A DNA stretch of 35,656 nt, from contig CAZOBT010000001.1 in the NCBI GenBank assembly GCA_964578025.1, forward strand, positions 1-35,656, given 5' to 3'. Positions 2 to 23,003 of this stretch are shown one piece after another; the first letter of the stretch is position 1; every line of letters begins with the position of its first letter. This DNA is from an uncultured Rhodocyclaceae bacterium (GTDB lineage: Bacteria > Pseudomonadota > Gammaproteobacteria > Burkholderiales > Rhodocyclaceae). The notes beneath the pieces were generated by a model. That model was not told where the DNA came from and made no database searches. It saw only the letters and a program-made list of their open reading frames with translations. A program made the translations under genes and the position numbers.

Positions 2-283
2 GGGCAAGTGCTAAGTTTGACCTTAGAAGGAATTCGTTATTTGGCGCAAGGTCGTTCTAGTGCGATTATCAATGGTGAACTGGTGTATGTCGGTAGTTTA
101 GTGGGGGAATATGTAGTCTTAGGGATTCGCCCTAATGAAGTCCAAGTACGGAAGGAACAAACGGTGGAAGTATTAAAACTTTCTTCCATCGAAAAAGCAT
201 TTGTTAAGTCAGAAAACAACACAGAGAAAACAACCCGGCAGTCACGTAAGACTAAGCAAGTTGTGCATAAGGTACAAAGATGA
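2..283 (+). CDS. mshK: MshK-like MSHA pilus biogenesis protein, probably 5'-truncated by the window edge
   Basis: The frame is open back to position 2. The stop TGA 281-283 overlaps the ATG of the downstream secretin gene (ATGA). The position directly upstream of mshL matches MSHA operons. No diagnostic motif was seen, so the call rests on synteny. Confidence 0.45.
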   Translation, partial: GQVLSLTLEGIRYLAQGRSSAIINGELVYVGSLVGEYVVLGIRPNEVQVRKEQTVEVLKLSSIEKAFVKSENNTEKTTRQSRKTKQVVHKVQR

Positions 284-2106
284 AGCTAGATGCAAAAAAG
301 GTGATGCAATACTGGATGTATTGGCTTCTTAGTGGTGTTTTGCTAGGCATAACGGCGTGTACCACACCAGGGCAGTTGCCATTAGGACAAGTGCATGAGC
401 AAATTGCTCGTGAATTGCAGCTTGCCGTTGCACAAAATCGGGCAGCCCAAAATCAAGACGCAAATAGTAATCCGCTCGCCCAAGCTTTCTTGCCGCCGGT
501 GAGTGGGGTAAGCAGCAAAAAGAAGGAAGAGCTACGTTTTGATTTAGCCGTGAATCAAGCCCCTGCCCAGCAAGTTTTTATGGCACTGGTATCTGATACC
601 AAATACAGCATGTCGGTCTCGCCAGATGTCTCTGGCCTGATTACGGTAAATTTAAAATCGGTCACGGTACGAGAAGCGTTAGAAGCGATCCGTGAAACCT
701 ATGGTTATGAATACACAATTTCTGGTAATCGCATTGTGATTCAACCGAATACCTTCCAAACCCGGATTTTCCAAATTAACTATCTGGCCTCAAAACGCTT
801 GGGGACAAGTGATTTGAGCGTGTCGTCCTCTGGTTCAAGTAGTAGTTCGAGTAGCAGTGGTAGCTCCAGTAGTAGTTCAGGCAGCAGTTCTAGTTCATCA
901 GGGTCAAGTAGTAGTTCAAGTGGTGGCTCCAGTGGTAGCAGCGGTGCAAGCAGTTCAGGTTCAGCTTCAACACGGGTACAAACAAGCTACGAGGCTGATT
1001 TCTGGAAAACGCTAGAAACAGCGTTAATGGCGATCGTGATGAATTCAAGCTCGGGCAGTAGCATTGGTGTAGGCAGTGTTCCTGCCAGTAACGCAAGTTC
1101 AGCAGGCGTAACAAGTAGCTCAGGAAGCGCATCCAGTGCCAGCTCCCCTCCAAGTCAGAATACATCGCCAGCAAGCAATAACGGCGGAACACCAAGTGTG
1201 ATTGTGAGCCCGCTTTCAGGCGTTGTACTGATACGTGCCGCTCCGAAGGAAATGCGCTTAGTCACCCAATATTTAGAGAAGACGCAACTGGTGATAGAGC
1301 GACAAGTTATGCTGGAAGCCAAGATTCTTGAGGTCTCTTTAAGCCAAGCGTATCAGTCAGGAATTAACTGGAGCAAATTGGATACAACGGGAACGAATAC
1401 TTCCGGTGTACGCTTGTTTGGAGAAGCCTTTGTCAACCCGTCTTTTGAGCAAGGATTTTTTGGTTTGGCGTTAGGGCGTAAGCAATTTCAAGGAGTCATT
1501 CAGCTCTTGGAAACACAGGGTAATGTTTCCGTCCTCTCAAGCCCACGTATTGCCACATTGAATAATCAGAAGGCGGTATTAAAAGTCGGTACGGATGAGG
1601 TCTTTATTACGGGATTTAGTATGTCATCAACCGTAACGGCTAATGCCGCCGCCGCTGTACCAACAGCAACAACATCTACCCTTTTTTCTGGAATTCTGCT
1701 GGATGTGATGCCACAGATTGATGATGATGACAATATTATTTTGCATATTCATCCTTCTGTCAGCCGCGTTACCGAAAAGGTCAAGAATTTTACCTTAGGG
1801 ACAAACTATGTCATTAGCTTGCCTTTGGCCTCACGCAATGTGAACGAAGCCGATAGTATGGTGCGTACTCGCAGTGGCGATATTGTGGCAATTGGTGGTT
1901 TGATGAGCCAAAATTCCAATGCAGATCGCCAAGGTGTTCCAGGGTCATTAGACCAACCATTCAGTGCGTTACTTGGGCAACGTACTAGTTCAATGGGCAA
2001 AACAGAACTGGTGATTCTTTTAAAGTCGACGATTATCTCTGGCAGTAAAACTTGGGTGCAAGACACTGAAGAGACAGAAGAGCGAGTCCGGCGCATTAAC
2101 AAGTAA
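280..2106 (+). CDS. mshL: MSHA pilus secretin lipoprotein MshL with two Ser-rich low-complexity inserts
   Basis: 608 aa. N-terminal signal sequence with lipobox LLGITAC. C-terminal secretin-domain stretch VLSSPRIATLNNQKAVLKVGTDEVF ... GGLM ... GVPG ... ELVILLK. Operon context is mshK-L-M-N-E-G. Confidence 0.85.
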   Translation: MKLDAKKVMQYWMYWLLSGVLLGITACTTPGQLPLGQVHEQIARELQLAVAQNRAAQNQDANSNPLAQAFLPPVSGVSSKKKEELRFDLAVNQAPAQQVFMALVSDTKYSMSVSPDVSGLITVNLKSVTVREALEAIRETYGYEYTISGNRIVIQPNTFQTRIFQINYLASKRLGTSDLSVSSSGSSSSSSSSGSSSSSSGSSSSSSGSSSSSSGGSSGSSGASSSGSASTRVQTSYEADFWKTLETALMAIVMNSSSGSSIGVGSVPASNASSAGVTSSSGSASSASSPPSQNTSPASNNGGTPSVIVSPLSGVVLIRAAPKEMRLVTQYLEKTQLVIERQVMLEAKILEVSLSQAYQSGINWSKLDTTGTNTSGVRLFGEAFVNPSFEQGFFGLALGRKQFQGVIQLLETQGNVSVLSSPRIATLNNQKAVLKVGTDEVFITGFSMSSTVTANAAAAVPTATTSTLFSGILLDVMPQIDDDDNIILHIHPSVSRVTEKVKNFTLGTNYVISLPLASRNVNEADSMVRTRSGDIVAIGGLMSQNSNADRQGVPGSLDQPFSALLGQRTSSMGKTELVILLKSTIISGSKTWVQDTEETEERVRRINK

Positions 2107-2142
2107 GATGGGGAAAACACAACAAGTACAAGGGGTGAACAG

Positions 2143-2976
2143 GTGTACCTAGAGCACTATGGCTTAAGCGAATATCCCTTCATGATTACACCGGATAGCC
2201 AAGCAATTTTTGTGAGCCGGGCATATCAAGGGGCTTTGAATACCCTACTGCTGGCTTTGGAAGGGGGCGAAGGCTTTGTCAAAGTGACTGGGGAGGTTGG
2301 CACAGGGAAGAGCTTGTTATGTCGGCGGCTGTTGCGAATCTTGCCTGATAGTGTTGTCACCGCGTATTTTCCCAACCCAATTTTGTCGCCAAAAACTTTG
2401 CTCAAAGCCTTAACTGAAGAATTGGGTCTTAAGGATTTGTCCGATAAAGACGAGTATCACCTGTTGCAAGACGTGAATAATCATTTGCTCTCGTTAGCAG
2501 CAAGTGGCAAACGCGTGGTGATGTGCTTGGATGAGGCACAAGCCATGCCTTTAGAAACTTTAGAGACGTTACGCTTACTTTCTAATTTAGAAACCGAAAA
2601 ATACAAACTTATCCAAATTGTATTATTTGGTCAGCCAGAGTTGAATGACCGGCTTAGAGATCGCTCTATCCGGCAATTATTACAACGCATCGCTTTCCAT
2701 GCCGAATTAGACCCATTGTGCCAAGAAGAGTTAGGTTTTTACCTAAATCATCGGATGCGTGTCGCTGGTTATCAAGGTGAGGATTTGTTTAATTCCAAAG
2801 TCATACGCGCTTTGTATCGTGCGAGTGGTGGCATTCCAAGGCTAGTAAATATTCTGACCCATAAATCGTTATTGTCTGCATTTAGCCGTGGCAAACGTAT
2901 TGTTAACTTTGATGACGTTCGCAATGCAGCCGCTGATACAGAAGGGGCATGTAATGTGCCATGGTGGTCTTTATGA
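2143..2976 (+). CDS. mshM: ExeA-like AAA ATPase MshM
   Basis: 277 aa with a GTG start after a GGGG RBS. Walker A GEVGTGKS and Walker B-like VVMCLDEAQ. Lies directly after the secretin gene, as in MSHA loci. Confidence 0.8.
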   Translation: MYLEHYGLSEYPFMITPDSQAIFVSRAYQGALNTLLLALEGGEGFVKVTGEVGTGKSLLCRRLLRILPDSVVTAYFPNPILSPKTLLKALTEELGLKDLSDKDEYHLLQDVNNHLLSLAASGKRVVMCLDEAQAMPLETLETLRLLSNLETEKYKLIQIVLFGQPELNDRLRDRSIRQLLQRIAFHAELDPLCQEELGFYLNHRMRVAGYQGEDLFNSKVIRALYRASGGIPRLVNILTHKSLLSAFSRGKRIVNFDDVRNAAADTEGACNVPWWSL

Positions 2977-4286
2977 GCTTGATTAATGATGTTCTGAAAA
3001 ATATTGATGCCCGCCAAGCCGGGGAGTTATCCCGCTTGAAACTGAATGCTGACGTGCACCCAGTACCTGAGATCAAACGCAAACCCAAGAAACTCTTGAT
3101 CGGCGGCATTGCTGCGGCTGTCCTAGCCATGCTTGGTGGTGCTGGGTTTTGGTGGTGGCAAACTCAGGGCAATATGCTGGGCGAGACAACACCAACCCCT
3201 CCAGCGATTGCTGCGGCTACCTTGCCACCGGCGACTCCCGTTCCTGCGGCTATTCCTGCGACTGAGCAAACCGGGATCAGCACTGTGAATACAAGCAATG
3301 CACCCGTGCCCCCTAACACGCCGCCAAGTCTACCTAATCCACCTAACCCGCCGAGTACTACCGCTGCTACCAGTGCTGTGGCGACCAACTCCATTCCTAA
3401 CCAAACCAAGCCAGCGAATCAGGACAATAAATCTGCCGGAGAAAAGGTAGAAAAAGCTGAAAAGGCAGAAAAAGCCGCCAAGCCGATGGCGGCAAGCAAA
3501 ACCGAGAAGGCGGAAAAGCCTAAACCCCCAGAAGAAAAAAGTAGTGCCACCCCGGAAGTCAATGGCTCTGCGCTACCGCCTCTGAGCACCGGCAACTCCG
3601 TAGAACGTGAAAAATCCGCGACTAAAACCGCCGGGAAATCTACTGCTGCACCAACAGCCAATGCGGTAAGCCCCCATGCGCACTCTAGTAATGCAGGGGC
3701 AGGCAGTATTTCAATTACCCCAAGTGTGCAAGATGCAAATAGCTTATATAAACAGGGGCAAAGCCAAATTAACGCACGGCGTTTTGAGGAAGGCATTGCC
3801 CAACTCCGCCAAGCCTTACAACAAGACCCAAAACATGTTGCCGCCCGACAACTGCTTTTTCAAACCCTGTTGAATGACTTGGCTCGATCCAATGATGCCC
3901 TAAAGATATTGCAAGAAGGTTTGGAGTTCTATCCACAAAATGCCAACTGGGCTAGCTCGGTGGCACGCTTGCAAGTCGACAAAAACGACTGGCATGGAGC
4001 GCAGGAAGTGCTGGCGAAAGCCTATGGTAGTGGTAACAATAATCCGGCCTATGTTGGCTTTTATGCCCATGTCCAACGTCATCTTGGCAAATCGCAAGAG
4101 GCTGTTGCCTTGTTTACCCAGGCGACTCGTCTTGCTCCCAATGAGGGACGTTGGTGGGTGGGTTTAGCGGATGCCTTAGAGGCAAGTGGGCGCAATGCTG
4201 AAGCTAAACAAGCGTATCGCAGTGCCTTAGAAACCGGAAATTTAAGTGCAGATTTAACGGCACTTGCCGAACGTAAAGCGCGTTAA
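2973..4286 (+). CDS. mshN: TPR-repeat pilus biogenesis protein MshN
   Basis: The ORF is open from 2961. The preferred start is ATG 2973 (MSLINDVLKNID...), which overlaps the mshM stop as ATGA. One TM segment, a long Pro/Ala/Lys-rich linker (KAEKAEKAEKAAK) and C-terminal TPR-like repeats. Confidence 0.7.
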   Translation: MSLINDVLKNIDARQAGELSRLKLNADVHPVPEIKRKPKKLLIGGIAAAVLAMLGGAGFWWWQTQGNMLGETTPTPPAIAAATLPPATPVPAAIPATEQTGISTVNTSNAPVPPNTPPSLPNPPNPPSTTAATSAVATNSIPNQTKPANQDNKSAGEKVEKAEKAEKAAKPMAASKTEKAEKPKPPEEKSSATPEVNGSALPPLSTGNSVEREKSATKTAGKSTAAPTANAVSPHAHSSNAGAGSISITPSVQDANSLYKQGQSQINARRFEEGIAQLRQALQQDPKHVAARQLLFQTLLNDLARSNDALKILQEGLEFYPQNANWASSVARLQVDKNDWHGAQEVLAKAYGSGNNNPAYVGFYAHVQRHLGKSQEAVALFTQATRLAPNEGRWWVGLADALEASGRNAEAKQAYRSALETGNLSADLTALAERKAR

Positions 4287-4333
4287 GCGTATTTGTCTAA
4301 GCTGTCTAAGTCGATCAAGAAAGTAGATGTTTT

Positions 4334-6037
4334 ATGCCGCCACCACCCAAAGTCCGACTTGGTGATCTCTTAATCCAACGTGGTTTATTAACCGAAAATC
4401 AGTTACTGCATGCCCTTGATGAACAGAAAAAAAGTGGGCAACGCTTAGGTCGTATCTTTGTTGATCTTGGCTATGTGAGTGAAGACGATATTGCTTTTTC
4501 CTTGGCTCAACAGTTACGCATTACCTATGTCAACTTACGCCAATTTGCCCCACGTCCAGAATTAACCCGGCTTTTACCCGAAGTGCAAGCCCGCCGTTTT
4601 CGGGCGATGGTGTTGGATGAACTGCCCGATGGGCGTTTACAAGTTGGCTTGGCTGATCCAACTGACCTACAAGCCTATGACGATATTTCGCGGGTAGTCC
4701 GGCGTGAAATTGACATTGCCGTTGTTGCTGAAGGCATGTTGATGTCTTTGATGGATCGGGTGTACCACAAAGGCGAAGAAATTACAGGTTTGGCACGCGA
4801 ACTCACCGCCGAATTAAGCGATGGTGGCGATTTAAGCCAAATGTTTGGCACAGCTTCTGCCGATGACGTACCCGTTGCCAAACTGCTCAATACGGTATTT
4901 GAAGAAGCCATTCGCTTCCGTGCTTCTGACTTACACTTTGAGCCACAAGAAACGACCTTGCGGATTCGTTTTCGTATTGATGGGGCGTTGCATATCCAAA
5001 CCGAAACGGATGTCAAAATTAATTCAGCTTTGGTACTGCGCATGAAGCTGATTTCTGGTTTGGATATTTCGGAAAAACGCTTACCGCAAGACGGTCGCTT
5101 TAACATGAAACTCAGTAATGGTTCGGTCGATGTGCGGATTTCGACCTTGCCAACGCAATATGGCGAATCGGTGGTAATGCGTTTGCTGAACCAAGGTTCG
5201 ATGGCGTTAGAGTTAGACAAAATTGGGATGCCACCGCGTGTGCTAGATCGCTTGCGTCATGCCCTTAGTCGTCCCAGTGGTTTGGTGTTGGTGACTGGGC
5301 CAACAGGCTCAGGGAAAACTACCACGCTGTATTCGGCTTTAAATGACTTGAACAGCCCAGATGCGAAGGTGATTACGGTTGAAGACCCAGTGGAATACCG
5401 TTTGCCAGGTCTGAATCAAGTACAGATTAACGACAAAATCGGTCTAACTTTTGCGCGGGTGTTGCGTACTGTTTTGCGGCAAGACCCGGATGTGGTGCTC
5501 GTTGGGGAAATGCGTGATCAGGAAACGGCTGAAATTGGGATGCGGGCGGCAATGACAGGGCACTTGGTGTTATCCACCCTGCACACCAATGACGCAATGA
5601 CTACCCCAATTCGTTTGCTTGATATGGGCGTACCCAAATTTATGGTGGCTTTGTCCGTGGTCATGGTGTTGGCGCAACGTTTAGTCCGGGTAATTTGTCG
5701 TACCTGTAAAGAACAATACGAACTGCCTAAAGTTGAGCGTGAATGGTTGCGTTATGAACTGGGCGATCATGTTGACCAATACACGTTCTATCATGGTAAA
5801 GGCTGTCCCGAATGTAACCAAACAGGCTACAAAGGACGTACCGGGGTATATGAATTCTTGGAAATGTCGGATGAGTTGGTGGATGCCGCGAATAGTGATG
5901 ACCACACGCTCTTTCTTTCGGCAGCGAAAAAACAAATGGCAGGGGAAACCTTGCGTCGAGATGCCGTGCGTTTAGCCATTTCCGGGAAAACGACAGTTTC
6001 TGAAGCCATGAAGATTAGTAATCAGTACGAAGGCTAA
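4334..6037 (+). CDS. mshE: MSHA pilus extension ATPase MshE (GspE/PilB family) with N-terminal MshEN c-di-GMP-binding domain
   Basis: 567 aa. Two tandem 24-residue MshEN motifs at residues 8-31 and 37-60. Walker A GPTGSGKTT. Tetracysteine CRTC...CPEC typical of GspE-type ATPases. Confidence 0.92.
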   Translation: MPPPPKVRLGDLLIQRGLLTENQLLHALDEQKKSGQRLGRIFVDLGYVSEDDIAFSLAQQLRITYVNLRQFAPRPELTRLLPEVQARRFRAMVLDELPDGRLQVGLADPTDLQAYDDISRVVRREIDIAVVAEGMLMSLMDRVYHKGEEITGLARELTAELSDGGDLSQMFGTASADDVPVAKLLNTVFEEAIRFRASDLHFEPQETTLRIRFRIDGALHIQTETDVKINSALVLRMKLISGLDISEKRLPQDGRFNMKLSNGSVDVRISTLPTQYGESVVMRLLNQGSMALELDKIGMPPRVLDRLRHALSRPSGLVLVTGPTGSGKTTTLYSALNDLNSPDAKVITVEDPVEYRLPGLNQVQINDKIGLTFARVLRTVLRQDPDVVLVGEMRDQETAEIGMRAAMTGHLVLSTLHTNDAMTTPIRLLDMGVPKFMVALSVVMVLAQRLVRVICRTCKEQYELPKVEREWLRYELGDHVDQYTFYHGKGCPECNQTGYKGRTGVYEFLEMSDELVDAANSDDHTLFLSAAKKQMAGETLRRDAVRLAISGKTTVSEAMKISNQYEG

Positions 6038-6046
6038 GCCAATCCC

Positions 6047-7321
6047 ATGCCCAGTTTTAGCTATAAAGGTCGCGCCGTTGACGGTAAAGCGGTACAAGGT
6101 ACATTAGAAGCCCAAGATCAGCGCGATGCGGCAACACAATTGCGTAACCGAGGCATTACGCCATTACAAATTGTGGCAGGTAAAGGTGGGGCGGCAAAAG
6201 CTGGAGCAAAAGGGAAAGCACAAGGTGAGGGCGGGCTGAAAGGGCTAGCATCTATGGATGTTGGTGCATTTTTTCAACCTCCGGTTAAACCCACTGATTT
6301 ACTTTTGTTTACTCGGCAAATCGCCACCTTGCTCAAAGCGGGCGTACCAATCATGCGCGCGCTCTCTGGCTTGCAAGAGTCCACACAGAATCCAACAATG
6401 AAGTCCTTGTTACAAGACATTCGCGAGAAGCTTGATTCGGGGCGTGAACTTTCATCGGCAATGTCAGCACATACCAAAGTCTTTGAACCGTTTTATCTCA
6501 ACATGATTCGTGTTGGCGAACTGACGGGGCAGCTTGATGAAATTTTCCGCCGCTTGTTTACCCACCTTGAATTTGAACAATTTATGCGTGAGCAGGTGAA
6601 ATCAGCCTTGCGCTACCCTTCATTTGTTATTTTGGCGATGCTGATTGCGATTGTGATTTTGAATGCCTATGTAATTCCCGCGTTTGCTAAAGTGTTCCAA
6701 GGCTTTGGTGCTGAATTGCCAACGATGACAAAGATATTGCTCGCAAGTTCGAGTTTTACAGTTAATTATTGGCCTTACATGTTAGTGCCTACCATTTTAT
6801 TGATAGGGGCTTTTAAGTATTGGACTTCCACCAAAAGCGGTAAATACACATGGGATTTCATCAAGTTAAAGATTCCCATTGCAGGCAAGATTATTCTGAA
6901 AGCGTCACTTTCGCGCTTCTCGCGTAGCTTTGCCTTGGCCTTACGTAGTGGTGTGCCATTGATCCAAGCTTTGAATAATGTGTCGCAAACCATGGATAAC
7001 GCCTACATGGTGTCGCGTTTAGAGAAGATGCGCGAGACGATTGAGCGGGGTGAAACGCTAATTCGCGCGGCGGCAGGGGCAACAATCTTCACCCCCATCG
7101 TGTTACAAATGATTGCCGTTGGCGAGGAGTCAGGGGCGATTGACGACATGTTGCAGGAAGTCGCAGAAATTTATCAGCGCGAAGTTGAGTATGAACTGAA
7201 AACATTGAGCCAACAGATTGAACCAATTCTAATTACTTTCCTTGGTGCAATGGTTTTGGTGCTTGCGCTAGGTATTTTCTTACCCATGTGGGATTTGGGT
7301 AAGGCCGCAAAAGGTAAGTAA
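6047..7321 (+). CDS. mshG: Type IV pilus platform protein MshG (GspF/PilC family)
   Basis: 424 aa. Duplicated GspF-type domain architecture with three hydrophobic segments. Lies immediately after mshE. Confidence 0.88.
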   Translation: MPSFSYKGRAVDGKAVQGTLEAQDQRDAATQLRNRGITPLQIVAGKGGAAKAGAKGKAQGEGGLKGLASMDVGAFFQPPVKPTDLLLFTRQIATLLKAGVPIMRALSGLQESTQNPTMKSLLQDIREKLDSGRELSSAMSAHTKVFEPFYLNMIRVGELTGQLDEIFRRLFTHLEFEQFMREQVKSALRYPSFVILAMLIAIVILNAYVIPAFAKVFQGFGAELPTMTKILLASSSFTVNYWPYMLVPTILLIGAFKYWTSTKSGKYTWDFIKLKIPIAGKIILKASLSRFSRSFALALRSGVPLIQALNNVSQTMDNAYMVSRLEKMRETIERGETLIRAAAGATIFTPIVLQMIAVGEESGAIDDMLQEVAEIYQREVEYELKTLSQQIEPILITFLGAMVLVLALGIFLPMWDLGKAAKGK

Positions 7322-7549
7322 TTTTTCACACTTTCTTAAGTCAAGAGTTGGTAAGCAAAAACAGTTACTTTCTGCGCACAAATGTAAGAATAGTTATAGA
7401 TTAGGCAAAGACGCTTTTCTTAATAAATTTTCTGATTACAATGGCCGCAAGTGGAAATTATCAGTGATGCAGAAAATTGAATAATTTCTATATATGTAGT
7501 CTTTAAGCAAAATTGTTCGTTTTTATTATTTCCTCCAAAGGAGTTCAAC
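7322..7549 (+). promoter_or_regulatory. AT-rich intergenic region presumed to hold the major-pilin promoter; RBS AAAGGAG lies about 7 nt before the ATG
   Basis: This 228-bp noncoding gap is the only large gap inside the msh cluster. It has a strong Shine-Dalgarno at about 7537-7543. I could not pin down convincing -35/-10 or sigma-54 GG-N10-GC elements. Confidence 0.3.
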
Positions 7550-8005
7550 ATGAAAAGCAATCGTGGTTTTACCTTGATCGAATTAGTTGTTGTTATCGTT
7601 ATTCTTGGCATCCTCGCTGCCACCGCTCTGCCTAAGTTCGTTGACTTGGGTCAAGATGCTCGCGTTGCTGCCATGAAAGGACTACAAGGCTCTATGCAGG
7701 CAGCAAACACCATTATTTATGCTAAAGCCTCAGTCCAAGCAACTCCAGCATTAGGTGAGGATACGAGCGTGCCAGTTAACGGTGTTAATATCAAAACGGC
7801 TTATGGTTATGCTAAAAATATTGAAGAGCTGAAAAAAGTGCTGGACACTTCTGCTGACTTTGAATTTGACACTACCAATAACAAAGTCAACCATAAGAAT
7901 GCTCCTGATAAAACCAAGTGCGTAATTAAATATGATCCTGCAACCTCTGCCACGGTAGCGCCTGTCTATAGCAGCTCAAGCACGGTTCTAACCTGCGGTA
8001 GCTAA
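7550..8005 (+). CDS. mshA: MSHA major pilin (type IV prepilin, N-methylation site G/FTLIE)
   Basis: 151 aa. Short leader MKSNRG followed by FTLIELVVVIVILGILAA. C-terminal Cys pair (KC...TCGS). Has its own promoter gap upstream and a strong terminator downstream. Confidence 0.85.
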   Translation: MKSNRGFTLIELVVVIVILGILAATALPKFVDLGQDARVAAMKGLQGSMQAANTIIYAKASVQATPALGEDTSVPVNGVNIKTAYGYAKNIEELKKVLDTSADFEFDTTNNKVNHKNAPDKTKCVIKYDPATSATVAPVYSSSSTVLTCGS

Positions 8006-8035
8006 TCTGGTTAGTCCCTTCGGGATGAGCTGATT

Positions 8036-8605
8036 GTGTTAAACGACTTGTCCCAAACAAAACCCCCGTCTCAAAACGGGGGTTTTTTGTCGTTGATTTT
8101 TTGCAGAGATTTCTGCAAAAACCGGGGGTTTACGCTGATTGAGCTGGCAGTGGTGATTACAGTACTTGGCATCGTATTGGCAATTGGTGTGCCACGTTTG
8201 TTAGAGCGTAGTGATTTTGATGCCATGGCATTCCGTCATGAATTGCGTAGTGCAGTGGCGCATGCTCAGCGCGTGGCGATTGCGTCTCGCCGTTTTGTTT
8301 GTATTGAAACGACAGCGAGTATGGTCAGTTTCACCCAAATTGATATTCCACCTGAAAATACCGGGGCAAGCTTAACGTGTACTACGCCGCTGAATTTGCC
8401 CAAAGGCCGACCTTCTTGCGCAGGTAATCCTGACCATCAGATTTGCCCACCGGGGAATGTGCAAATGAGTAATGTGGTGTTTATCTTTGATGCCGCAGGG
8501 CGACCGATTGCGAGTAACAAACAAGTCTTTACGACACCAATTCATATTGGTATTACTGATCAAGATGATTTGATTATTGAAGCTGAATCAGGTCATGTCC
8601 ATTAA
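8036..8605 (+). CDS. MSHA minor pilin (MshB/MshC-like prepilin); the true start is probably TTG 8087 or 8093
   Basis: Prepilin motif KNRG/FTLIELAVVITVLGIVLA. The maximal ORF (GTG 8036) would read through the terminator hairpin and give a 30-aa leader. In-frame TTG codons at 8087 and 8093 give an 11-13 aa leader. Confidence 0.7.
   Translation: MLNDLSQTKPPSQNGGFLSLIFCRDFCKNRGFTLIELAVVITVLGIVLAIGVPRLLERSDFDAMAFRHELRSAVAHAQRVAIASRRFVCIETTASMVSFTQIDIPPENTGASLTCTTPLNLPKGRPSCAGNPDHQICPPGNVQMSNVVFIFDAAGRPIASNKQVFTTPIHIGITDQDDLIIEAESGHVH
8059..8088 (+). terminator. Rho-independent terminator/attenuator after the major pilin gene
   Basis: The stem AAAACCCCCG (8059-8068) pairs with CGGGGGTTTT (8077-8086). 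The loop is 8 nt and a T6 run follows. Confidence 0.8.
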
Positions 8606-9083
8606 GCCTAAAAGCTCTTATCACGCTTATGCCTACTATCATCGCCAACACGGTGTGTTGTTGATTGAGTTAATCATGGCGATTGTGATTGTCAGTACTG
8701 CCCTACTAGGAATTAGTTCGGTCATTAACCTGACGCTGGAAAAAAGTGCCGATCCACTGGTGGTCAAACAACGAATGTTGATTGCCGATGGCTTAATGGA
8801 AGAAATTTTGAGCAAAGCTTATAACGATCCCGGTGTTGGGCATACAGCGACAGGGCAACGCCAGTATTACGATGATATTAATGATTATTCAGGCTTTCAT
8901 ATGGAAGGGATTCGCAGCATTGATGGCACGCCAATCCCTGAACTTGCCGAATATAACGTTAGTGTCAGTGTGACCCCTGCCACATTACCTAATGGCACAG
9001 TCGCCCGCTTAGTTCGGATTGAGGTTAAGGTCAATCGCTACGATGACTATGTATTAGAAAGTTATCGGACAGCGTATGAGTAA
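8577..9083 (+). CDS. mshD: MSHA minor pilin-like protein MshD-like
   Basis: Degenerate prepilin N-terminus HG/VLLIELIMAIVIVS. The alternative start ATG 8595 overlaps the upstream gene. Assigned by position in the operon. Confidence 0.55.
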   Translation: MKLNQVMSIKPKSSYHAYAYYHRQHGVLLIELIMAIVIVSTALLGISSVINLTLEKSADPLVVKQRMLIADGLMEEILSKAYNDPGVGHTATGQRQYYDDINDYSGFHMEGIRSIDGTPIPELAEYNVSVSVTPATLPNGTVARLVRIEVKVNRYDDYVLESYRTAYE

Positions 9084-9954
9084 GCAACTTTGCAGATCAG
9101 GGCGTATGTTGGTGTTACAACAAGGTTTCACTCTTGTTGAGCTAATTGTCACGATGGCGATTTTGGCGGTAGTCGCGGCAATTGTCGTGCAGCCCTTATC
9201 ACAGCCGTTTAAGAACTTCATGGAAATTACGCGGCGGGCGGAATTAAGTGATGCCGCAAACAGTACCTTGCGCCGTCTTGAGCGTGATGTGCATGAAGCC
9301 TTACCGAATAGTCTGCGGCAGCCAAGTAGTACCTGTTTGGAATATTTGCCGATTATTGCCGGGGGGCGGTATCGCGCCAATTTAAGCAGCAGGAATAGCG
9401 GTGATATTCTGGATTTTACGGGTGTGGATAATCGCTTTGATGTGCTTACTGGTTTTGGCCTCAGTGGATTACCCAATGGGGCGCACTTGGTGATTTATAA
9501 CCTAGGCATTCGTGGCGCAAATGCTTATGATCTTGATAACACGGCCTTTATTGCCACTGGGGCAAGCAATGCCAGCTCAGTGACCTTGATGCAAAGTAAA
9601 TTATTTCCATTTGCTTCGCCGGGGCAACGTTTTCAGGTTATCCCGAATGAGTCAAGGGTTTATGCCTGTGTTAACCTTGGACAGGATGCGGAAGGAAACG
9701 GCACTGGCTTATTAGTACGTTATCCCCGGAGCTTAGGGAATAGCGCGTTACCTGCCTTAAACAATTGCCCGGTGAGTACCTCAGAATTGCCCAGTGGCTA
9801 TATCACCCTTGGGCAAAGTTTAAGTCAATGCACCATTAACTATGGCACAGGGGTATATCAGCGCGATGCGGTACTCCAAGTGAATTTGGGTTTAAGTAAG
9901 CAAGAAACCGCGATTCAACTTAGGCATGAAGCACATATTGAAAATGTTCCATAA
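9076..9954 (+). CDS. mshO: MSHA biogenesis prepilin-like protein MshO-like
   Basis: 292 aa. Prepilin motif QQG/FTLVELIVTMAILAVV. The start overlaps the upstream stop. Order D-O-P-Q matches Vibrio MSHA loci. Confidence 0.6.
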   Translation: MSKQLCRSGRMLVLQQGFTLVELIVTMAILAVVAAIVVQPLSQPFKNFMEITRRAELSDAANSTLRRLERDVHEALPNSLRQPSSTCLEYLPIIAGGRYRANLSSRNSGDILDFTGVDNRFDVLTGFGLSGLPNGAHLVIYNLGIRGANAYDLDNTAFIATGASNASSVTLMQSKLFPFASPGQRFQVIPNESRVYACVNLGQDAEGNGTGLLVRYPRSLGNSALPALNNCPVSTSELPSGYITLGQSLSQCTINYGTGVYQRDAVLQVNLGLSKQETAIQLRHEAHIENVP

Positions 9955-10408
9955 CTTGCTTTTATCCCCCTATCGCCAACATGCAGGCTTTGCGTTACCT
10001 GCGGCGGTTTTCGTGTTGGTTATTCTGTCCGGTTTGGCGGCGTTTGCAGCTTCTTTAGCCTCGTTTCAACACAGTGGCTCAAGTCTTGAAGTGGTGGGGC
10101 AACGGGTTTATCACGCGGCACGTTCTGGGCTGGAGTGGGGGATGTATCAGGTACTTACTGCCCCCAGCAGTGCCTGTAATGCCACCGGAACAGATTTAGT
10201 GTTTGCGACAGATTCGCTACAAGGGATAAAGATCAGTGTGCGTTGCCAAGCGTTGAATGTCGATGAGTTAGATGCCGGGCAATTAGTTGAAATTACGGCG
10301 ACCGCCTGTAATGCCCCGCTTAGCACCTCCCCTGCGTGTCCCGGTAATGCGGCCAATAACAATAACTATGTCGAGCGGAAAATGTCCGCCGTGGTGGAAA
10401 AACCCTAG
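9926..10408 (+). CDS. mshP: MSHA biogenesis protein MshP-like
   Basis: 160 aa. N-terminal hydrophobic helix AGFALPAAVFVLVILSGLAAF (degenerate pilin-like). Alternative start ATG 9944. Assigned by position. Confidence 0.5.
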   Translation: MKHILKMFHNLLLSPYRQHAGFALPAAVFVLVILSGLAAFAASLASFQHSGSSLEVVGQRVYHAARSGLEWGMYQVLTAPSSACNATGTDLVFATDSLQGIKISVRCQALNVDELDAGQLVEITATACNAPLSTSPACPGNAANNNNYVERKMSAVVEKP

Positions 10409-10518
10409 CCAGGCTAATTTAATAATAGTTGGTCTATTGTTTATCACCCCATATTTAATGTGATTTTTTGGCTGATTTTTAATTTGGTCTTGTGTTTTGT
10501 GCCTGTTAGGAATTAACC

Positions 10519-12357
10519 ATGCGCCCCCATTTATTTTCTGTTGCAACCTTGCCTCTTGCCTTGGTGTGGGTTATCAGTTTGGCCTTGCCCAATGTGGCGA
10601 TTGCCGCCTTAGGGCGGCTCAATGCTTTTGAGCTAGATGCGTCTGGTACGGCGATTACGGGAAATTTATATACACGGGTAGTGGGGCAAACGCTGCAAAT
10701 TAGCGTAGTAGCACTTAGTCCTTCGAAGCGCGATGTGGATACTGGGACAACTGGCTCAGTCAAAGTGGAACTGCTGGGTGGGCAAGATTTATCGGGCAAC
10801 TTAGATACCAACAATTGCCCGAGCAGTGCCATTGTGGTGACGAGCGCGACGGGGACACTGACCGCCGGGCGGGGTTCAGCGCAACTAAATGTGGGGAATC
10901 AGCCGTTTCTTCATGCGCGTTTACGGTTGTCGTTTCCGGCAACAGGTACGCCAACGTTACAAGCCTGTGCCGAAGATGGCTTTGCGATTCGCCCCAGTGC
11001 CATTACCTTGCGCAGCACCACCAGCACAGGAAGCGCGACCAATACCAACGCTAGTGCTTCCGCAACACCAACGATTAAGGCGGGCAGCAATTTTTCTTTC
11101 AACTTGGAAAGCAATACCACAGGCTATAACGCCACTTTATGGCTAGATCGCTCGCGCTTACAGGCTCACTCGCCCACTGATCCCAGCCAAAATAGCGGTG
11201 GGGTCTTGGGAAATCTGGTGCTAAGCAATGGCGATGGTTTAGCGGTAAATGCCAACCTCAGCAATAACGCGACCTATGACGAAGTCGGCTATCTCAGCTT
11301 TTTGCCGGGCGCATGGCGTGATGATACTTACACCAGTATCGACCAGCCAAATGATTGTGTGCCACAACAAGCCCATGATGTTCCTGATAGTTCGGGTCGC
11401 GTAGGGTGTGCGGTTGGCAATGCCACCAACTATGTCCTTGGACGATTTACGCCCAGCTATTTTGTGATCGTTACCGCTCCGGTGCAGCCTGCTTGTACCA
11501 ATATGACCTACTATGGGCAAACTGGTTTGCAAACGGTGCTGGGTATTTTGGCAAAAGCCAGTAACGACATCATTACCAAGAATTATCAAGGGCAGTTGGC
11601 GCGGCTTGATCCCAACAATCGCAGTCAGTGGCAATTTACGGCGGACAATTTGCCCAGTGGCGTTACCCTCAGTGCTGGGGCAGCGGTGAACACGGGAACT
11701 TGGACGGATGGCAAGATCAATATCTTTCGTGCGGCGCATACGTTTTCTCGCCCAAGTGCGCCAATTGCCCCAGCTGACATTGTGATTAAAGCCCTACCGG
11801 TAGATGCTGATGGGGTAACGTTGGTAAATGGCACGGCTGTACGAGTGCATAACGAAGAAAGTACGCCATTACGCTATGGGCGTTTGCGTCTAATGAATGC
11901 GCATGGTTCAGAGCTGTTACCTTTACCCATGCTCATGAAGACGGAAATGTGGACGGGATCGGCATGGCGTACCAATGTGCAAGACAACTGCACTGGCACA
12001 AGTTTAACGATTCCTAGCAATAAGCCCCGGACACAAACGCCGAATGGTTTGCCCGGTTTATGGTTTAGTGGGGAAGAGGCCAGCATTGCCAATTACCTTG
12101 CGCCCAACGAAACATTTTTAAGCGTTGATTCTTGGGCTAATGGGGCAGGTCGGCTGCGTTTTTCTGCGCCGGGGAATGGCAACATGGGCTGGTTGGATGT
12201 GCTGCTACCTGTTCCCGATCACCTCAAAGGTTTCTGGGGCAATTGCCTTGGGCAAGCGGGGGGCAGTGCCAGTAACTTGAGTAATTACCCTTGTGCGCGT
12301 GCCACTTTTGGCGTTTACTCTTCTGGTAAAGTCGTTTTTCGGCGTGAGATTTACTGA
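10519..12357 (+). CDS. mshQ: Secreted MSHA-associated protein MshQ-like
   Basis: 612 aa with signal peptide MRPHLFSVATLPLALVWVISLALPNVAIA and a beta-rich Thr/Ser/Asn-rich body. It is the last large gene of the cluster. The call rests mainly on position. Confidence 0.45.
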   Translation: MRPHLFSVATLPLALVWVISLALPNVAIAALGRLNAFELDASGTAITGNLYTRVVGQTLQISVVALSPSKRDVDTGTTGSVKVELLGGQDLSGNLDTNNCPSSAIVVTSATGTLTAGRGSAQLNVGNQPFLHARLRLSFPATGTPTLQACAEDGFAIRPSAITLRSTTSTGSATNTNASASATPTIKAGSNFSFNLESNTTGYNATLWLDRSRLQAHSPTDPSQNSGGVLGNLVLSNGDGLAVNANLSNNATYDEVGYLSFLPGAWRDDTYTSIDQPNDCVPQQAHDVPDSSGRVGCAVGNATNYVLGRFTPSYFVIVTAPVQPACTNMTYYGQTGLQTVLGILAKASNDIITKNYQGQLARLDPNNRSQWQFTADNLPSGVTLSAGAAVNTGTWTDGKINIFRAAHTFSRPSAPIAPADIVIKALPVDADGVTLVNGTAVRVHNEESTPLRYGRLRLMNAHGSELLPLPMLMKTEMWTGSAWRTNVQDNCTGTSLTIPSNKPRTQTPNGLPGLWFSGEEASIANYLAPNETFLSVDSWANGAGRLRFSAPGNGNMGWLDVLLPVPDHLKGFWGNCLGQAGGSASNLSNYPCARATFGVYSSGKVVFRREIY

Positions 12358-12394
12358 GCAGAATTGACTAAGTACACAGAAGAGAGGAAATAGG

Positions 12395-12871
12395 ATGCAA
12401 GAAGATGTGCTCGCCCTCGACAAATTTAGCCATACCTTAGAATGGCTATTGGCATTACAAGGGCGTTATCCCAATTTAATCCAATTTGGGATTATTCATG
12501 TTGAATTTCATAATCGTCAGCGTTTAGGGCAGCTTTATGGGGCAAAAGATGCGATGGCAATGCTGACAAAATTAACCAGTGATCTGCGCCAAAAATTTCG
12601 TAAAACGGATTTGGTCGCCCGTTTGGGGATGGATTTCTGGATTCTTGTGCCGTATACCGAACCGGACACCGTCACGGAAAAAGTCCACACCCTTGTGGAG
12701 TTGGCCTCACAAGCCGGGTTAGGGGTGGTCTCTCGTGATGTGGCTGTGTTTTCGCACCAAGACCCGGTGTTACAAGAGGCAAGCTGTTGTGCAACACCAG
12801 AGTCTTTCTTGCTTTACTTAAAGCGTAATCACAATATCAATCGGCATTGGCAACCGAGTCCAATGCTGTGA
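12395..12871 (+). CDS. Stand-alone degenerate GGDEF-domain protein (GMD-F in place of GGDEF, RxxD I-site retained)
   Basis: 158 aa. The stretch FRKTDLVARLGMDFWILVPYT aligns with the canonical RxxD-x5-GG(D/E)EF-xxxxP block. YGAKDAMAMLTKL matches the GGDEF YGHxxGDxxL region. RBS GAGAGGAAA precedes the ATG. It lies only 37 nt after mshQ on the same strand. Confidence 0.7.
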   Translation: MQEDVLALDKFSHTLEWLLALQGRYPNLIQFGIIHVEFHNRQRLGQLYGAKDAMAMLTKLTSDLRQKFRKTDLVARLGMDFWILVPYTEPDTVTEKVHTLVELASQAGLGVVSRDVAVFSHQDPVLQEASCCATPESFLLYLKRNHNINRHWQPSPML

Positions 12872-12892
12872 GTGTGAGCGAAATAGGGCTAA

Positions 12893-13459
12893 CTAGCCGC
12901 TCTCCCCATACCCAATTTGCCGTAATAAGGCCGCGCTATGTTGTTGGATAGCAGTGGTTGAGCTGTTTGTTGGTAAGGCTGTTTGGGCAACTAAGGTACT
13001 TAATTCTTGCTCGGATAGTTTGGGTAATGGGCGAGCAAAATATTGCATAGCGGCTTGGGCAAAGCCTTGGCTTGCCTCCACGTTTTCGTTATTACCTTGG
13101 GCAAATGTTGTCTCAGTTAACACCACAGCGATTTGCTCAGTTTCAGAGAGGTGTAAAAGCACTAAGAAAGACCACAAAAAAGCCCGCCAAGCCGACACCT
13201 CATTATTGTTAGCCGGAGCTTGTTGCAGCAGTAAACGAGCCACTTGCTCAGGGAGGCGGCTATTGGGGTAAGCCGCTTTAATCAGCTTTGGCACGGTCGC
13301 AGGTAATTGCATGTGCAACTCTTCGGCGGTTTCCCAGTTTTTCCGTAATTCTGCCCAACGTGGTTGAAAAAATAATAGATCATCGCCAAGCAAACAGAGT
13401 ACTGGGAACGCAATTGCCAGTGTGCTACAGAAGATCAGCGTTTTGATAAAGCGGTACAT
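12893..13459 (-). CDS. Membrane-anchored protein with a degenerate GT51 (peptidoglycan transglycosylase)-like region
   Basis: The ORF is open to TTG 13501; ATG 13459 (MYRFIKTLIF...) is preferred. N-terminal TM helix. The C-terminal part (AQAAMQYFARPLPKLSEQELSTLVAQTALP) resembles the YF-x-K-x-LT-x-EAA-LA-P block of MtgA/PBP glycosyltransferases. The catalytic ED...F and RGxST motifs were not seen. Confidence 0.45.
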   Translation of the reverse strand: MYRFIKTLIFCSTLAIAFPVLCLLGDDLLFFQPRWAELRKNWETAEELHMQLPATVPKLIKAAYPNSRLPEQVARLLLQQAPANNNEVSAWRAFLWSFLVLLHLSETEQIAVVLTETTFAQGNNENVEASQGFAQAAMQYFARPLPKLSEQELSTLVAQTALPTNSSTTAIQQHSAALLRQIGYGESG

Positions 13460-13669
13460 CGTGGGCAGTCGTTTCGCATCGAAGAAAAATGAAGTTGGCA
13501 AGAAATGCTAATTCTGTCAAAAGTGATTCTAACTGATACTGGACAAACTGTTGCGAATTCCTGCGATTTGCCCGTATTGCAGCGAATCTGCCCACTAATT
13601 TTCTTGTCCCGTACAATCACGCCATTTACTGCGCAACAAACCACACAATAAACAAGATCAGGTACATCC

Positions 13670-15022
13670 ATGTCCGAGATACCGTCCTACACCGCCGCCA
13701 ACGCTTCCTGTCATACGCCGTATGCCGTGCGCCGCCGCCGTTTACTGGCGCAGCTTGCCGCCCTTGGTGATGGCGTGGCGATTTTGCCTACCGCTCCAGA
13801 AGTGATTCGTAATCGTGATGCGCATTTCCCTTATCGCTTTGACAGTGATTTCTTTTATCTGACGGGCTTTGCTGAACCGGAAGCCGTCTTAGTTTTGGTC
13901 GCTGATAGTCGTACTAAGACGCAACAAAGCATTCTGTTTTGCCGCGAAAAGCATGAAGAGCGCGAGATTTGGGATGGTTTCCGGTATGGCCCAGCAGCGG
14001 CGTGTGCTGATTTTGCATTTGATGCGGCTTACCCAATCGCTGAATTGGCGCAACGTTTGCCAGAGTTAATCGCTAATCACGATACCTTGTGGCATTCCCT
14101 TGGCTACAACAGCGAGTGGGATCAGCAGATCATTCTGGCCTTAACTACCGTGCGTAGCCAAGCCCGTGCGGGGAAAAAAGCTCCAAGCATGGTGCGTGAT
14201 TTGCAATCACTGATTCATGCCATGCGTTTGCTCAAAGACACACACGAAATTGCCCTGATGCGTGAAGCAGCGCGGATTAGCAGCTTGGGGCATTTACGTG
14301 CGATGCAAACATGCCGCCCTGGCATGGGCGAATATGCCTTAGAAGCCGAATTAAGCTATGTCTTTCGCCAACACGGGGCAGAAGCCCATGCTTATACGCC
14401 GATTGTGGCGGGGGGAGCGAATGCGTGTACCTTGCATTACGTGGCAAACAATCAGCCCTTACCGCCCGATGGCTTGGTGTTGATTGATGCAGGGTGTGAA
14501 TATCATGGCTATGCCGCAGACATTACACGCACCTTCCCCATCAATGGCAAATTCACGGCGGCACAAAAAGATTGCTATGAAATTGTCTTGGCGGCACAGC
14601 AAGCGGCGATTGCCGCAACGCGTCCGGGGCAAGCATTTATGGCTCCGCATGAGGCGGCGGTGAAGGTGTTGGCACAAGGGATGTTGGATTTGGGCTTGTT
14701 ACACGGTTCGCTGGATGGCGTATTAGAAAGCGAAAGCTATAAGCGTTTTTACATGCACCGCACCGGACATTGGCTGGGCATGGATGTGCATGATGTGGGG
14801 GAATACAAACAAGGGGAAGCGTGGATGCCGTTACAACCCGGCATGGTGTTAACCATTGAACCCGGCCTGTACATCCGTCCCGCCGCCGACATTCCGCCGC
14901 ACCTCGCGGGCATTGGCATTCGTATTGAAGATGATGCCCTTGTTACCACTGACGGCTGTGACATTTACACCACTGCCCCCAAAACCGTGACCGAGATTGA
15001 AGAGGTGATGCGCCATGATTGA
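13670..15022 (+). CDS. pepP: Xaa-Pro aminopeptidase (M24B)
   Basis: 450 aa. Motifs LIDAGCEYHGYAADITRT, HRTGHWLGMDVHD, TIEPGLY and GIRIEDD. It is followed by ubiH, as in enterobacterial pepP-ubiH synteny. Confidence 0.92.
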   Translation: MSEIPSYTAANASCHTPYAVRRRRLLAQLAALGDGVAILPTAPEVIRNRDAHFPYRFDSDFFYLTGFAEPEAVLVLVADSRTKTQQSILFCREKHEEREIWDGFRYGPAAACADFAFDAAYPIAELAQRLPELIANHDTLWHSLGYNSEWDQQIILALTTVRSQARAGKKAPSMVRDLQSLIHAMRLLKDTHEIALMREAARISSLGHLRAMQTCRPGMGEYALEAELSYVFRQHGAEAHAYTPIVAGGANACTLHYVANNQPLPPDGLVLIDAGCEYHGYAADITRTFPINGKFTAAQKDCYEIVLAAQQAAIAATRPGQAFMAPHEAAVKVLAQGMLDLGLLHGSLDGVLESESYKRFYMHRTGHWLGMDVHDVGEYKQGEAWMPLQPGMVLTIEPGLYIRPAADIPPHLAGIGIRIEDDALVTTDGCDIYTTAPKTVTEIEEVMRHD

Positions 15023-16277
15023 AAGTGCGGAACAACACACTGACCTTGCGATTATCGGCAGTGGCCCGGTGGGTTTAACCTTGGCTCTCGCTTTATACGA
15101 TAGCCCGTACCACCTGAGCCTGATCGACCGTCGTCCTGCCAATGCTTGGGAAAATGATCCCCGCGCCTTGGCCTTGTCCTATGGCGCACGGCAAGTATTG
15201 CAACAACTCGGTGCATGGCCAGAGGCCGAAGCCACGCCGATTCATAACATTCATATTTCACAACGGCAGGGCTTTGGGCGCAGCGAACTGGATCGCGACA
15301 CCTACCAACTGCCCGCCCTCGGTTATGTTGTGCCTTATCCCGCCTTAATGCGGGCGTTAACGGCGGCCTTGGCGCGGAAAGAAGCCGCCGCAACGGCACA
15401 GACTCCGCGTCTGCACTATTGTTATGACTACCAAATTACGCAGCAAGATAATCAGGTCAATCAGGCCGATCAGATCACTGTGCATTTGCAAGCTAACAAC
15501 GGGGGTAACGAGTTACGCCTGTTGGCAAAAATCGTGGTACATGCCGAAGGTACACCCTACGACGATCCGCAGGTCGACGTGAGTGACTATGGGCAATGGG
15601 CGGTCGTTACTGAGGTTGGCCTTGCTCCCTATGCCTTGCAACGACTTGGACAAGCCAACGTCCAAACCTCGCGGCAAATTCCGCATGGCTACCGCGCATG
15701 GGAACGTTTCACCCCCGATGGCCCCTTGGCCTTATTGCCCCTAAAAGACGGTTATTCCGTGGTGTTCACCCTACCGCCTGAAAAAGCCAAAGCGGTTTTG
15801 GCCTTAAACGATGTCGATTTTCTCGCGGCCTTACAACAGCAATTTGGCAGCCGTTTGCGCTTTACCCGCACCGCCGCCCGGCACGCTTTCCCCTTGGCCT
15901 TACGTTGGCGCAAGCAATTAACCAATAAGCAAAATGGGCGTGAAGTCTGGATTGGCAATACGGCACAAACGCTGCATCCGGTGTCAGGGCAAGGCTTTAA
16001 CCTCGGTTTGCGTGACGCATGGGAACTCGCCGAAGCGGTGTGGAACAGCCCTAGCCCCGCTGATTTACCCAAGGCTTTGCAAACCTATGCCAAGGGGCGT
16101 TGCGTTGACCGCCAAGGCAGTGCCTTATTTACCGATAAAGTCGTGCGTTTGTTTTCTAACGATTCTCCCCTACTGCATCATGCCCGTGGCCTCGGCCTCT
16201 TCGCCCTCGACCTCATCCCGCCCGCCCGCCACCTCGTGGCTAAACGCATGATCTGGGGAGCGCGGGCATGGCCTTAA
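15015..16277 (+). CDS. ubiH: FAD-dependent ubiquinone biosynthesis hydroxylase (UbiH/UbiF/VisC family)
   Basis: 420 aa. FAD fingerprint DLAIIGSGPVGLTLALAL and GNTAQTLHPVSGQGFNLGLRD. It overlaps the pepP stop by 8 nt. Confidence 0.85.
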   Translation: MIESAEQHTDLAIIGSGPVGLTLALALYDSPYHLSLIDRRPANAWENDPRALALSYGARQVLQQLGAWPEAEATPIHNIHISQRQGFGRSELDRDTYQLPALGYVVPYPALMRALTAALARKEAAATAQTPRLHYCYDYQITQQDNQVNQADQITVHLQANNGGNELRLLAKIVVHAEGTPYDDPQVDVSDYGQWAVVTEVGLAPYALQRLGQANVQTSRQIPHGYRAWERFTPDGPLALLPLKDGYSVVFTLPPEKAKAVLALNDVDFLAALQQQFGSRLRFTRTAARHAFPLALRWRKQLTNKQNGREVWIGNTAQTLHPVSGQGFNLGLRDAWELAEAVWNSPSPADLPKALQTYAKGRCVDRQGSALFTDKVVRLFSNDSPLLHHARGLGLFALDLIPPARHLVAKRMIWGARAWP

Positions 16278-16651
16278 TTGCGGGTAATTTTCAGACCAAA
16301 TAAATAATCGGCTTGTTAGGTATATTTAATAGGGCAATTTGTTGCAAAGACCAAATCTAACGTAGCGATTTCGGATGCTCCTCCAGCGTCGTAGCTTCGG
16401 CGGCTGTTTGGCGTTTATGCCTTAATTTTTAGGCAGAAGGCTGTCTGGAGGAGTTATTGCCACAACAAAAACACATAAAATAACAAAAATAACTTTTATG
16501 TCAGAAATGGTTTTCGTGTATTCTTGTGCCACAGTGTAATTTTCAATAACTCCTTGTAAATTTATTCCTTTTTGTGGGCTAAGGAATAAAAAGCGAGATT
16601 TCACACATAATACAATTCAGCCCAATTTAGATTCTCTGAAAGTTAGCTGCT

Positions 16652-17995: not shown

Positions 17996-18058
17996 AGTTG
18001 TAATCTGGGTGGCTAGGCAGGCTAAACTTTAGGTTTTCTTTGTTTATTCCTGTTTGTC

Positions 18059-19216: not shown

Positions 19217-19240
19217 TTTGGTCTGAATCGCCATAAGGCA

Positions 19241-19270
19241 AGCCCCTGATGCTATATCAGGGGCTTTTTT
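19241..19270 (+). terminator. Rho-independent terminator of tal
   Basis: The stem AGCCCCTGAT (19241-19250) pairs with ATCAGGGGCT (19256-19265). The loop is 5 nt and a T6 run follows. Confidence 0.85.
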
Positions 19271-19405
19271 ATTTGGTCTTGGTTTTTCTGTGTGCGCAAT
19301 TGCCAGCGTATTGTTTAAACACTTTGTTACTTTTTTGCGCCTGTGTGATACCAATTTCTTACAAGAAAAGCCCACACTAAAGTCTCACTCACAGGGGAAA
19401 ACATC

Positions 19406-22924: not shown

Positions 22925-23003
<79 letters not shown>

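Follow-up and report, generated by a model that had tools for sequence, protein, structure and literature searches.

A stretch of 35,656 nucleotides (nt) from an uncultured Rhodocyclaceae bacterium (contig CAZOBT010000001.1 of assembly GCA_964578025.1, positions 1 to 35,656; this whole stretch is called the window below) carries a stand-alone GGDEF gene (12395..12871, + strand, ATG start) directly after mshQ, the last of a row of mannose-sensitive hemagglutinin (MSHA) pilus genes. We analyzed its product of 158 amino acids (aa). Judged from its sequence and a structural model, the protein is almost certainly a catalytically dead GGDEF fold. By analogy with known receptors, it probably binds cyclic di-GMP (c-di-GMP) at an inhibitory site (I-site) motif. 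We tentatively favor the reading, with somewhat less than even confidence, that it serves as a receptor or adaptor for c-di-GMP via the I-site and was recruited to the msh operon in this lineage.

The preliminary description of this DNA had called the protein a bare GGDEF fold without a sensor domain and had proposed a hidden Markov model (HMM) search and a structure prediction as checks. Both checks supported it. Pfam PF00990 matched the protein above its gathering score, though weakly (26.0 bits, gathering score 23.8, E = 8.9e-6), and only over residues 30-102. The TIGR00254 score was below its cutoff. No curated family in NCBIfam covered the protein, and cyclase equivalogs there matched only below threshold. 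When a profile of 72 family sequences was run against the PDB, it found the solved cyclase DgcR (6zxm) at E = 1.4e-7. The AlphaFold 2 (AF2) model, which was built on the 72-homolog alignment, had a mean confidence (pLDDT) of 82.6 and a predicted TM-score (pTM) of 0.79, and its secondary-structure elements followed the order H-E-H-E-E-H-E-H-H. Foldseek matches of the model at E <= 0.001 were GGDEF domains (YfiN, Dcsbis, SiaD, PleD, and TM1788), with a probability of 1.0. The top 50 matches were nearly all GGDEF domains; the remainder were adenylyl cyclases and one designed ferredoxin fold. TM-scores to GGDEF domains ranged from 0.39 to 0.64, and for the significant matches from roughly 0.45 to 0.64. 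A sensor or dimerization domain N-terminal to the GGDEF domain was absent, so the protein is the domain alone, and its homologs are 150-190 aa long. Profile and model together indicated that the GGDEF fold is real but highly diverged and simplified.

The catalytic positions were mapped by a HMMER alignment to DgcR. The signature reads G78-M79-D80-F81 (12626..12637, +), at the coordinates given previously, and was aligned as 'd.gadf' with 'FgGEEF' of DgcR. Its hairpin is one residue shorter than that of GG(D/E)EF. G78 and D80 were conserved in at least 90% of the 72-homolog core family and were lost in distant members. The metal- and substrate-binding segment H35-M54 (12497..12556, +), which canonically reads DxD..K..ND..GHxxGD, is also degenerate. 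The first metal Asp corresponds to H35, which is followed by a 2-residue insertion, and the second Asp corresponds to H39. The Asn-Asp pair is replaced by G45-Q46, and the Asp of GHxxGD by M54. The preliminary description had placed these positions at HVE...RL; its conclusion that catalysis was lost stood, whereas its residues had to be corrected to H35, H39, G45, and Q46. The changes of metal Asp to His, Asn to Gly, and Asp to Met or Ala, as well as the hairpin deletion, were all fixed across the family. K143 in the C-terminal helix aligned with the Lys of the AK..GRN motif. The roles of metal and guanine ligands were also assigned from those in PleD. In YfiN, the ligands of the Mg ion are the first Asp and the acidic Asp of the signature (PMC7825114). 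Some degenerate signatures, such as AGDEF and SGDEF, stay active (PMC3974145), but the damage in the 158-aa protein is far wider than such single substitutions. Several family members are labeled "diguanylate cyclase" in public sources, a label that the sequence does not support. Proteins of this family should be left out when c-di-GMP-synthesizing enzymes are counted in Rhodocyclaceae, Gallionellaceae, and Methylotenera genomes.

The I-site motif was kept despite the loss of the active site (A-site). It reads RKTD (R69-D72; 12599..12610, +) and lies five residues (LVARL) before G78 of GMDF, exactly as had been proposed. RKTD aligned with FRKSD at the I-site of DgcR. The PDB entry 6zxb, titled "I-site mutant", has FAKSA at this place, and the family profile scored wild-type DgcR at 34.4 bits but 6zxb at only 25.6 bits, a loss of about 9 bits. 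R69 and D72 were invariant in all 72 homologs, whose identity to the protein was 37-57%. In a broader alignment that reached stand-alone relatives with only 20% identity, R69, D72, W17, W82, and P86 were each conserved in at least 90% of the sequences, and the G-x-D remnant of the active site disappeared while RxxD stayed. R76 (12620..12622, +), which lies between the I-site and the signature hairpin, was the sole fully invariant column of the wide alignment (A3); it aligned with the Arg preceding GG(D/E)EF in DgcR. RxxD is present in only about 44-57% of GGDEF domains generally (PMC3974145), indicating that it is dispensable for the fold. The I-site geometry was judged from the alignment and the secondary structure. 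Two sequence features of degenerate-GGDEF I-site receptors, namely the RxxD spacing and an RxxD kept after A-site loss, were present.

We compared the protein with characterized systems. In CdgA (Bd3125) from Bdellovibrio bacteriovorus, RxxD likewise precedes a degenerate signature by five residues. The c-di-GMP binding of CdgA was predicted from such a motif and then shown, with a Kd of ~2 µM; CdgA has no cyclase activity, localizes to the prey-invasion pole, and is a c-di-GMP sink when overexpressed (PMC3271064). The 158-aa protein resembles the published description of CdgA in its degenerate signature and its RxxD spacing. A difference is that the CdgA signature, GVNEF, has full length, whereas GMDF carries a deletion. 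A specific sequence relationship to CdgA did not emerge, although the two proteins were not aligned directly. The degenerate GGDEF domain of BcsE binds c-di-GMP via RxxD and provides, in addition to BcsA-PilZ, a second module for c-di-GMP (PMC7439463). BcsE itself combines several domains (RecA-like, degenerate REC, and degenerate GGDEF), has the partners BcsQ and BcsF, and is conserved in its system, enterobacterial cellulose secretion; the 158-aa protein has a single domain, and its gene is not conserved in msh loci. PelD and PopA also have inactive GGDEF domains that use RxxD as a receptor site (PMC3974145; PMC7439463), but PelD has transmembrane and GAF domains and PopA has two REC domains, whereas the 158-aa protein has no other domain. 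FimX, whose GGDEF domain is dead, responds to c-di-GMP and controls a type IV pilus (T4P) extension ATPase (PMC11656802; see also PMC5595344). It binds c-di-GMP via its EAL domain and has ~700 aa with REC and PAS domains, whereas the 158-aa protein offers a candidate I-site only. The FimX GGDEF domain (3hva) was only a mid-ranking Foldseek match of the AF2 model (rank 41).

A specific kinship to the GGDEF domains of PelD, BcsE, PopA, or FimX was rejected, as the family profile gave no match to them at E <= 10 among all PDB sequences and returned active-type cyclases. The closest relatives in sequence and structure were the active I-site cyclases DgcR, PleD, WspR, TM1788, and YfiN. They share the RxxD position and the following Arg with the 158-aa protein, which lacks their catalytic determinants and their regulatory or dimerization domain. 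By analogy, the protein would be closest to CdgA in function and to BcsE in concept; in sequence it is a member of neither family. Its sequence features point to a new, uncharacterized instance of the degenerate-GGDEF I-site receptor class, unusual as a bare domain.

The gene lies close behind the mshQ-like gene (10519..12357, +), which was assigned by Pfam DUF6701 (E = 1.6e-56) and whose homologs are named MshQ by the Joint Genome Institute. The intergenic spacer has 37 nt (12358..12394, +) and contains a Shine-Dalgarno sequence, AGAGG (12383-12387), 7 nt before the ATG. A consensus scan found neither a promoter nor a terminator in the spacer. No convincing terminator was found at the junction, where the lone + strand candidate (12299-12314) was located inside mshQ; terminator-like sites were no more numerous than in shuffled sequence, and the junction folded no better than shuffles (z = -0.40). 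These scans agreed with the earlier claim that the gene starts 37 nt after mshQ with a ribosome-binding site and without a terminator between them. A promoter of its own was considered and rejected, because the lone + strand promoter-like site (12486-12514) was inside the gene and nothing scored above the shuffled controls. No c-di-GMP riboswitch or other structured RNA was detected in the window, in which the sole Rfam match was a tRNA (22928-23003, -). The window MshQ has 612 aa and is shorter than nearly every homolog (mostly 760-1067 aa), and its DUF6701 match begins only at profile position 131; it therefore looks like an N-terminally shortened MshQ.

Four contigs of close relatives (L049-L052, 98% protein identity) kept the order mshP, mshQ, GGDEF gene, convergent gene, pepP. 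The spacer between mshQ and the GGDEF gene was only 17 nt in two of them (L050 and L051). Judging by this layout, the GGDEF gene is probably co-transcribed with mshQ in this lineage. Against the close relatives, the gene showed 5-13 synonymous and 3 nonsynonymous changes, and all three nonsynonymous changes were in the variable C-terminal tail. This pattern indicated that the gene is under purifying selection. The possibility of a pseudogene or degraded remnant was ruled out by the conservation of length and motifs over 72 homologs and by the synonymous excess.

The genes upstream of mshQ (280..10408, +) are of the MSHA type: mshL (secretin), mshM (AAA), mshN (TPR), mshE, mshG, and five pilin or pilin-like genes including mshO and mshP. 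They were identified by Pfam matches to Secretin, AAA_22, TPR, T2SSE with MshEN, T2SSF, and N_methyl. The preliminary description had named the motor ATPase of this operon as a c-di-GMP receptor. The sequence was consistent with this: the product of mshE (4334-6037) matched Pfam MshEN, and its N-terminus contains two 24-residue RLGxx...Q motifs with 5 residues between them (RLGDLLIQRGLLTENQLLHALDEQ - KKSGQ - RLGRIFVDLGYVSEDDIAFSLAQQ in translation; 4355..4513, +), which fit the published c-di-GMP-binding motif of MshEN (PMC11656802). To date, the control of MSHA pili by c-di-GMP has been attributed to its direct binding by the MshEN domain of MshE (PMC11656802).

We propose the following explanation. 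The 158-aa protein would bind c-di-GMP at R69 and D72, probably as an intercalated dimer, as in CdgA, PelD, PopA, and BcsE. Since it has no output domain, it would act via protein-protein contact or by holding c-di-GMP locally. In this Rhodocyclaceae lineage, the msh minor-pilin/mshQ transcription unit would have acquired the gene as its 3'-terminal member, so that the protein would be made together with the pilus. The most plausible partner here would be the MSHA machine, with which it would be co-expressed, and its role may be that of an accessory c-di-GMP input or a local reservoir for MSHA, alongside the MshEN site of MshE. BcsE beside BcsA-PilZ would be a comparable arrangement. If this is true, a second operon-encoded I-site receptor adds a layer to the c-di-GMP control of MSHA, much as BcsE does beside BcsA, and the protein would be a very small single-domain model of an I-site that alone acts as a receptor.

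The distribution of the family was analyzed by profile search. An exhaustive search of 1.84 billion representatives yielded only 27 clusters at E <= 1e-30; relaxing the cutoff to E <= 1e-10 raised the number to 52, and almost every cluster consisted of stand-alone proteins of 150-175 aa. Species-level genomes with the family belonged to Rhodocyclaceae (Azonexus, Propionivibrio, Dechloromonas, and Azospira), Gallionella, Sideroxydans, Methylotenera, and Thiobacillus. The family is small, uncharacterized, and stand-alone, and is found in Rhodocyclaceae and Nitrosomonadales-type Betaproteobacteria.

We then surveyed 45 species-level family loci, including flanks of up to 10 kb to either side. Only about 4-6 of them were near msh or T4P genes, and the arrangements differed. 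In L019, the family gene comes right after an mshP-like gene at the cluster end, and an integrase gene is next. In L013 and L006, both from Dechloromonas, it is convergent with mshN. L013 (Dechloromonas metagenome-assembled genome (MAG), 10001-20327) contains an mshQ-like gene, pilin genes, mshO, mshP, mshL, mshM, and mshN, and then the convergent family gene and recQ; because no mshE or mshG was found within 10 kb, this msh cluster appears to be split at the family gene. In L027 (uncultured betaproteobacterium, 10604-17937), 120 nt separate the family gene from a downstream type IVa minor-pilin operon with fimT/ComP-like, fimU/GspH-like, pilW, and pilY1 genes, which is an association with a non-MSHA pilus. 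In L029 (Methylotenera mobilis 13, 9974-20455), the family gene is followed on the same strand by genes for an NtrC-type sigma54 response regulator, mshM, mshL, a TPR gene (mshN), mshE, and mshG. These pilus-adjacent loci (L019, L013/L006, L027, and L029) were scattered over the family tree. At least three independent adjacency events in 45 loci correspond to P ~0.0015-0.01 under an assumed null of 0.5-1% per locus. The family landed beside T4P clusters repeatedly, independently, and in differing arrangements, which makes a functional link to pili plausible. Across the family, the pilus link is plausibly recurrent but facultative, that is, accessory and lineage-specific. That the 158-aa protein itself acts on type IV or MSHA pili is possible, with the balance on the doubtful side.

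Two other features of these loci were observed. A gene for a PAS-GGDEF-EAL protein lies ~3-4.5 kb upstream of the family gene, not adjacent to it, in four Azonexus/Rhodocyclaceae-type loci (L002, L003, L014, and L045). One of them, L003, carries a 58%-identical family member and is labeled a 'Bacteroidota bacterium' MAG; it is probably mis-binned, because its neighbors cluster with those of Azonexus/Rhodocyclaceae loci.

Several results weigh against a recruited I-site receptor. Some concern the protein. Its single-sequence GGDEF match is marginal, only just above the Pfam gathering score, and the AF2 model superposes on real GGDEF structures at a TM-score of only ~0.5-0.6. A complete I-site has an additional basic residue on helix alpha3, which we take to be R390 of PleD and R402 of PelD. 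This position aligned with the variable H98, and only K96, two residues earlier, was conserved in at least 90% of the homologs; the I-site may therefore be incomplete. Binding of c-di-GMP is itself a prediction from the sequence. The other results concern the genomic context. In about 39 of the 45 family loci, the 10-kb flanks contained neither an msh nor a pilin gene. When every open reading frame (ORF) within 7 kb of the family gene was clustered over 46 loci, no neighbor family occurred in more than 5 of them, apart from spurious ORFs overlapping the family gene, so that a conserved operon partner was not found. The recurring neighbors were housekeeping genes (adh_short/GST, miaB, pyrC, moaA, typA, tadA, and recQ). 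The adjacency null was an assumed, not a measured, background, and the events were few. A survey of related msh loci, which the preliminary description had recommended, turned out negative: a homolog was absent from each of the four non-conspecific mshQ loci nearest to that of the window, whose MshQ proteins were at most 37% identical to the window MshQ. Presence in related msh loci, as expected of a core MSHA component like the mshH-Q set, was thus not found. Of the earlier operon claim, the tight and terminator-free junction held for this lineage and its close relatives, and linkage to MSHA genes extended to only a few other lineages, but a conserved MSHA component is contradicted by the ~39 loci and the four mshQ loci.

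These contextual results bear most directly on the strongest alternative, in which the protein is a pilus-independent c-di-GMP buffer or adaptor of an orphan I-site family, and its position after mshQ is an accident of rearrangement. Housekeeping neighbors at most family loci, none of them in more than 5 of 46, and the four related mshQ loci without the gene fit this explanation well, and the sink effect of overexpressed CdgA (PMC3271064) offers a precedent for buffering. It accords poorly with the independent adjacency to T4P clusters in at least three other lineages and with the very tight mshQ spacing, which was kept or shortened in relatives. We regard it as rather unlikely.

The opposite extension, in which betaproteobacterial type IV pili have in this family a minimal I-site module of their own, a free-standing receptor of roughly 160 aa that docks onto the MSHA/T4P machinery, appears unlikely as well. 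Under such an arrangement, either MshE or the minor-pilin/MshQ-PilY1 priming module would be the docking site, the protein would provide a second c-di-GMP input or a local reservoir independent of MshEN, and the partnership would have left its visible trace in the scattered loci beside pilus genes.

A nucleotide-free scaffold for protein-protein contacts, with R69, D72, R76, W17, and W82 forming a partner-binding or structural surface, would explain the unconserved alpha3 basic residue of the canonical I-site, as judged by alignment. The invariant W17 and W82 are atypical of GGDEF domains and suggest a novel surface, and the strong divergence of the fold (Foldseek TM-score ~0.5-0.6) points in the same direction. 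However, the spacing and position of RxxD are exactly canonical and align with the proven I-site of DgcR. Moreover, about half of GGDEF domains lack RxxD, so the fold does not depend on it, yet no element of this family is better conserved. The scaffold is therefore quite unlikely.

Less probable still is a decoy that inhibits active cyclases in trans by pairing with a cyclase GGDEF domain, directly or via dimeric c-di-GMP, and blocking productive dimers. Cyclase catalysis requires the dimerization of two GGDEF domains (PMC7825114), the nearest sequence relatives are active I-site cyclases and not PelD or BcsE, and four related loci have the PAS-GGDEF-EAL gene 3-4.5 kb away; but no cyclase was among the conserved neighbors, and an interaction with cyclases is purely conjectural, with little precedent for stand-alone domains. 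A retained A-site function, either GTP sensing as in degenerate GGDEF domains of the FimX/PdeA type or weak cyclase activity, is hardly credible, because the degeneracy is far more extensive than in the active AGDEF and SGDEF signatures (PMC3974145) or in FimX, whose GDSIF is predicted to bind GTP weakly and whose phosphodiesterase is stimulated by GTP only with an intact motif (PMC11656802), and because all changes are fixed across the family and the G-x-D remnant decays in distant members, even though K143 is kept.

Downstream of the GGDEF gene, a convergent gene of 202 aa (12893..13501, -) marks the end of the + strand transcription unit and was also present in the close relatives. Its match to Pfam Transgly was below threshold (19 bits against a gathering score of 27). 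The stop codons of the two genes are 21 nt apart, and no strong hairpin was found in this interval; the two convergent transcripts may therefore overlap. The convergent ORF has a hydrophobic N-terminus and is called as 188-189 aa in relatives. It is followed by pepP and a ubiH-like gene.

Elsewhere in the window, a Fic/DOC-domain gene (21681-22808) was found near the tRNA (22928-23003, -), upstream of the rpoD-dnaG region. A 1037-aa ORF (30678-33791), with no Pfam match at E <= 1e-5, starts where the GC content of the window is lowest (0.41 vs ~0.48) and may have been acquired horizontally. The GC content of the window is ~48%, and the best non-self matches of its RpoD, from Rhodocyclaceae, Azonexus, and Dechloromonas, were 82-83% identical.

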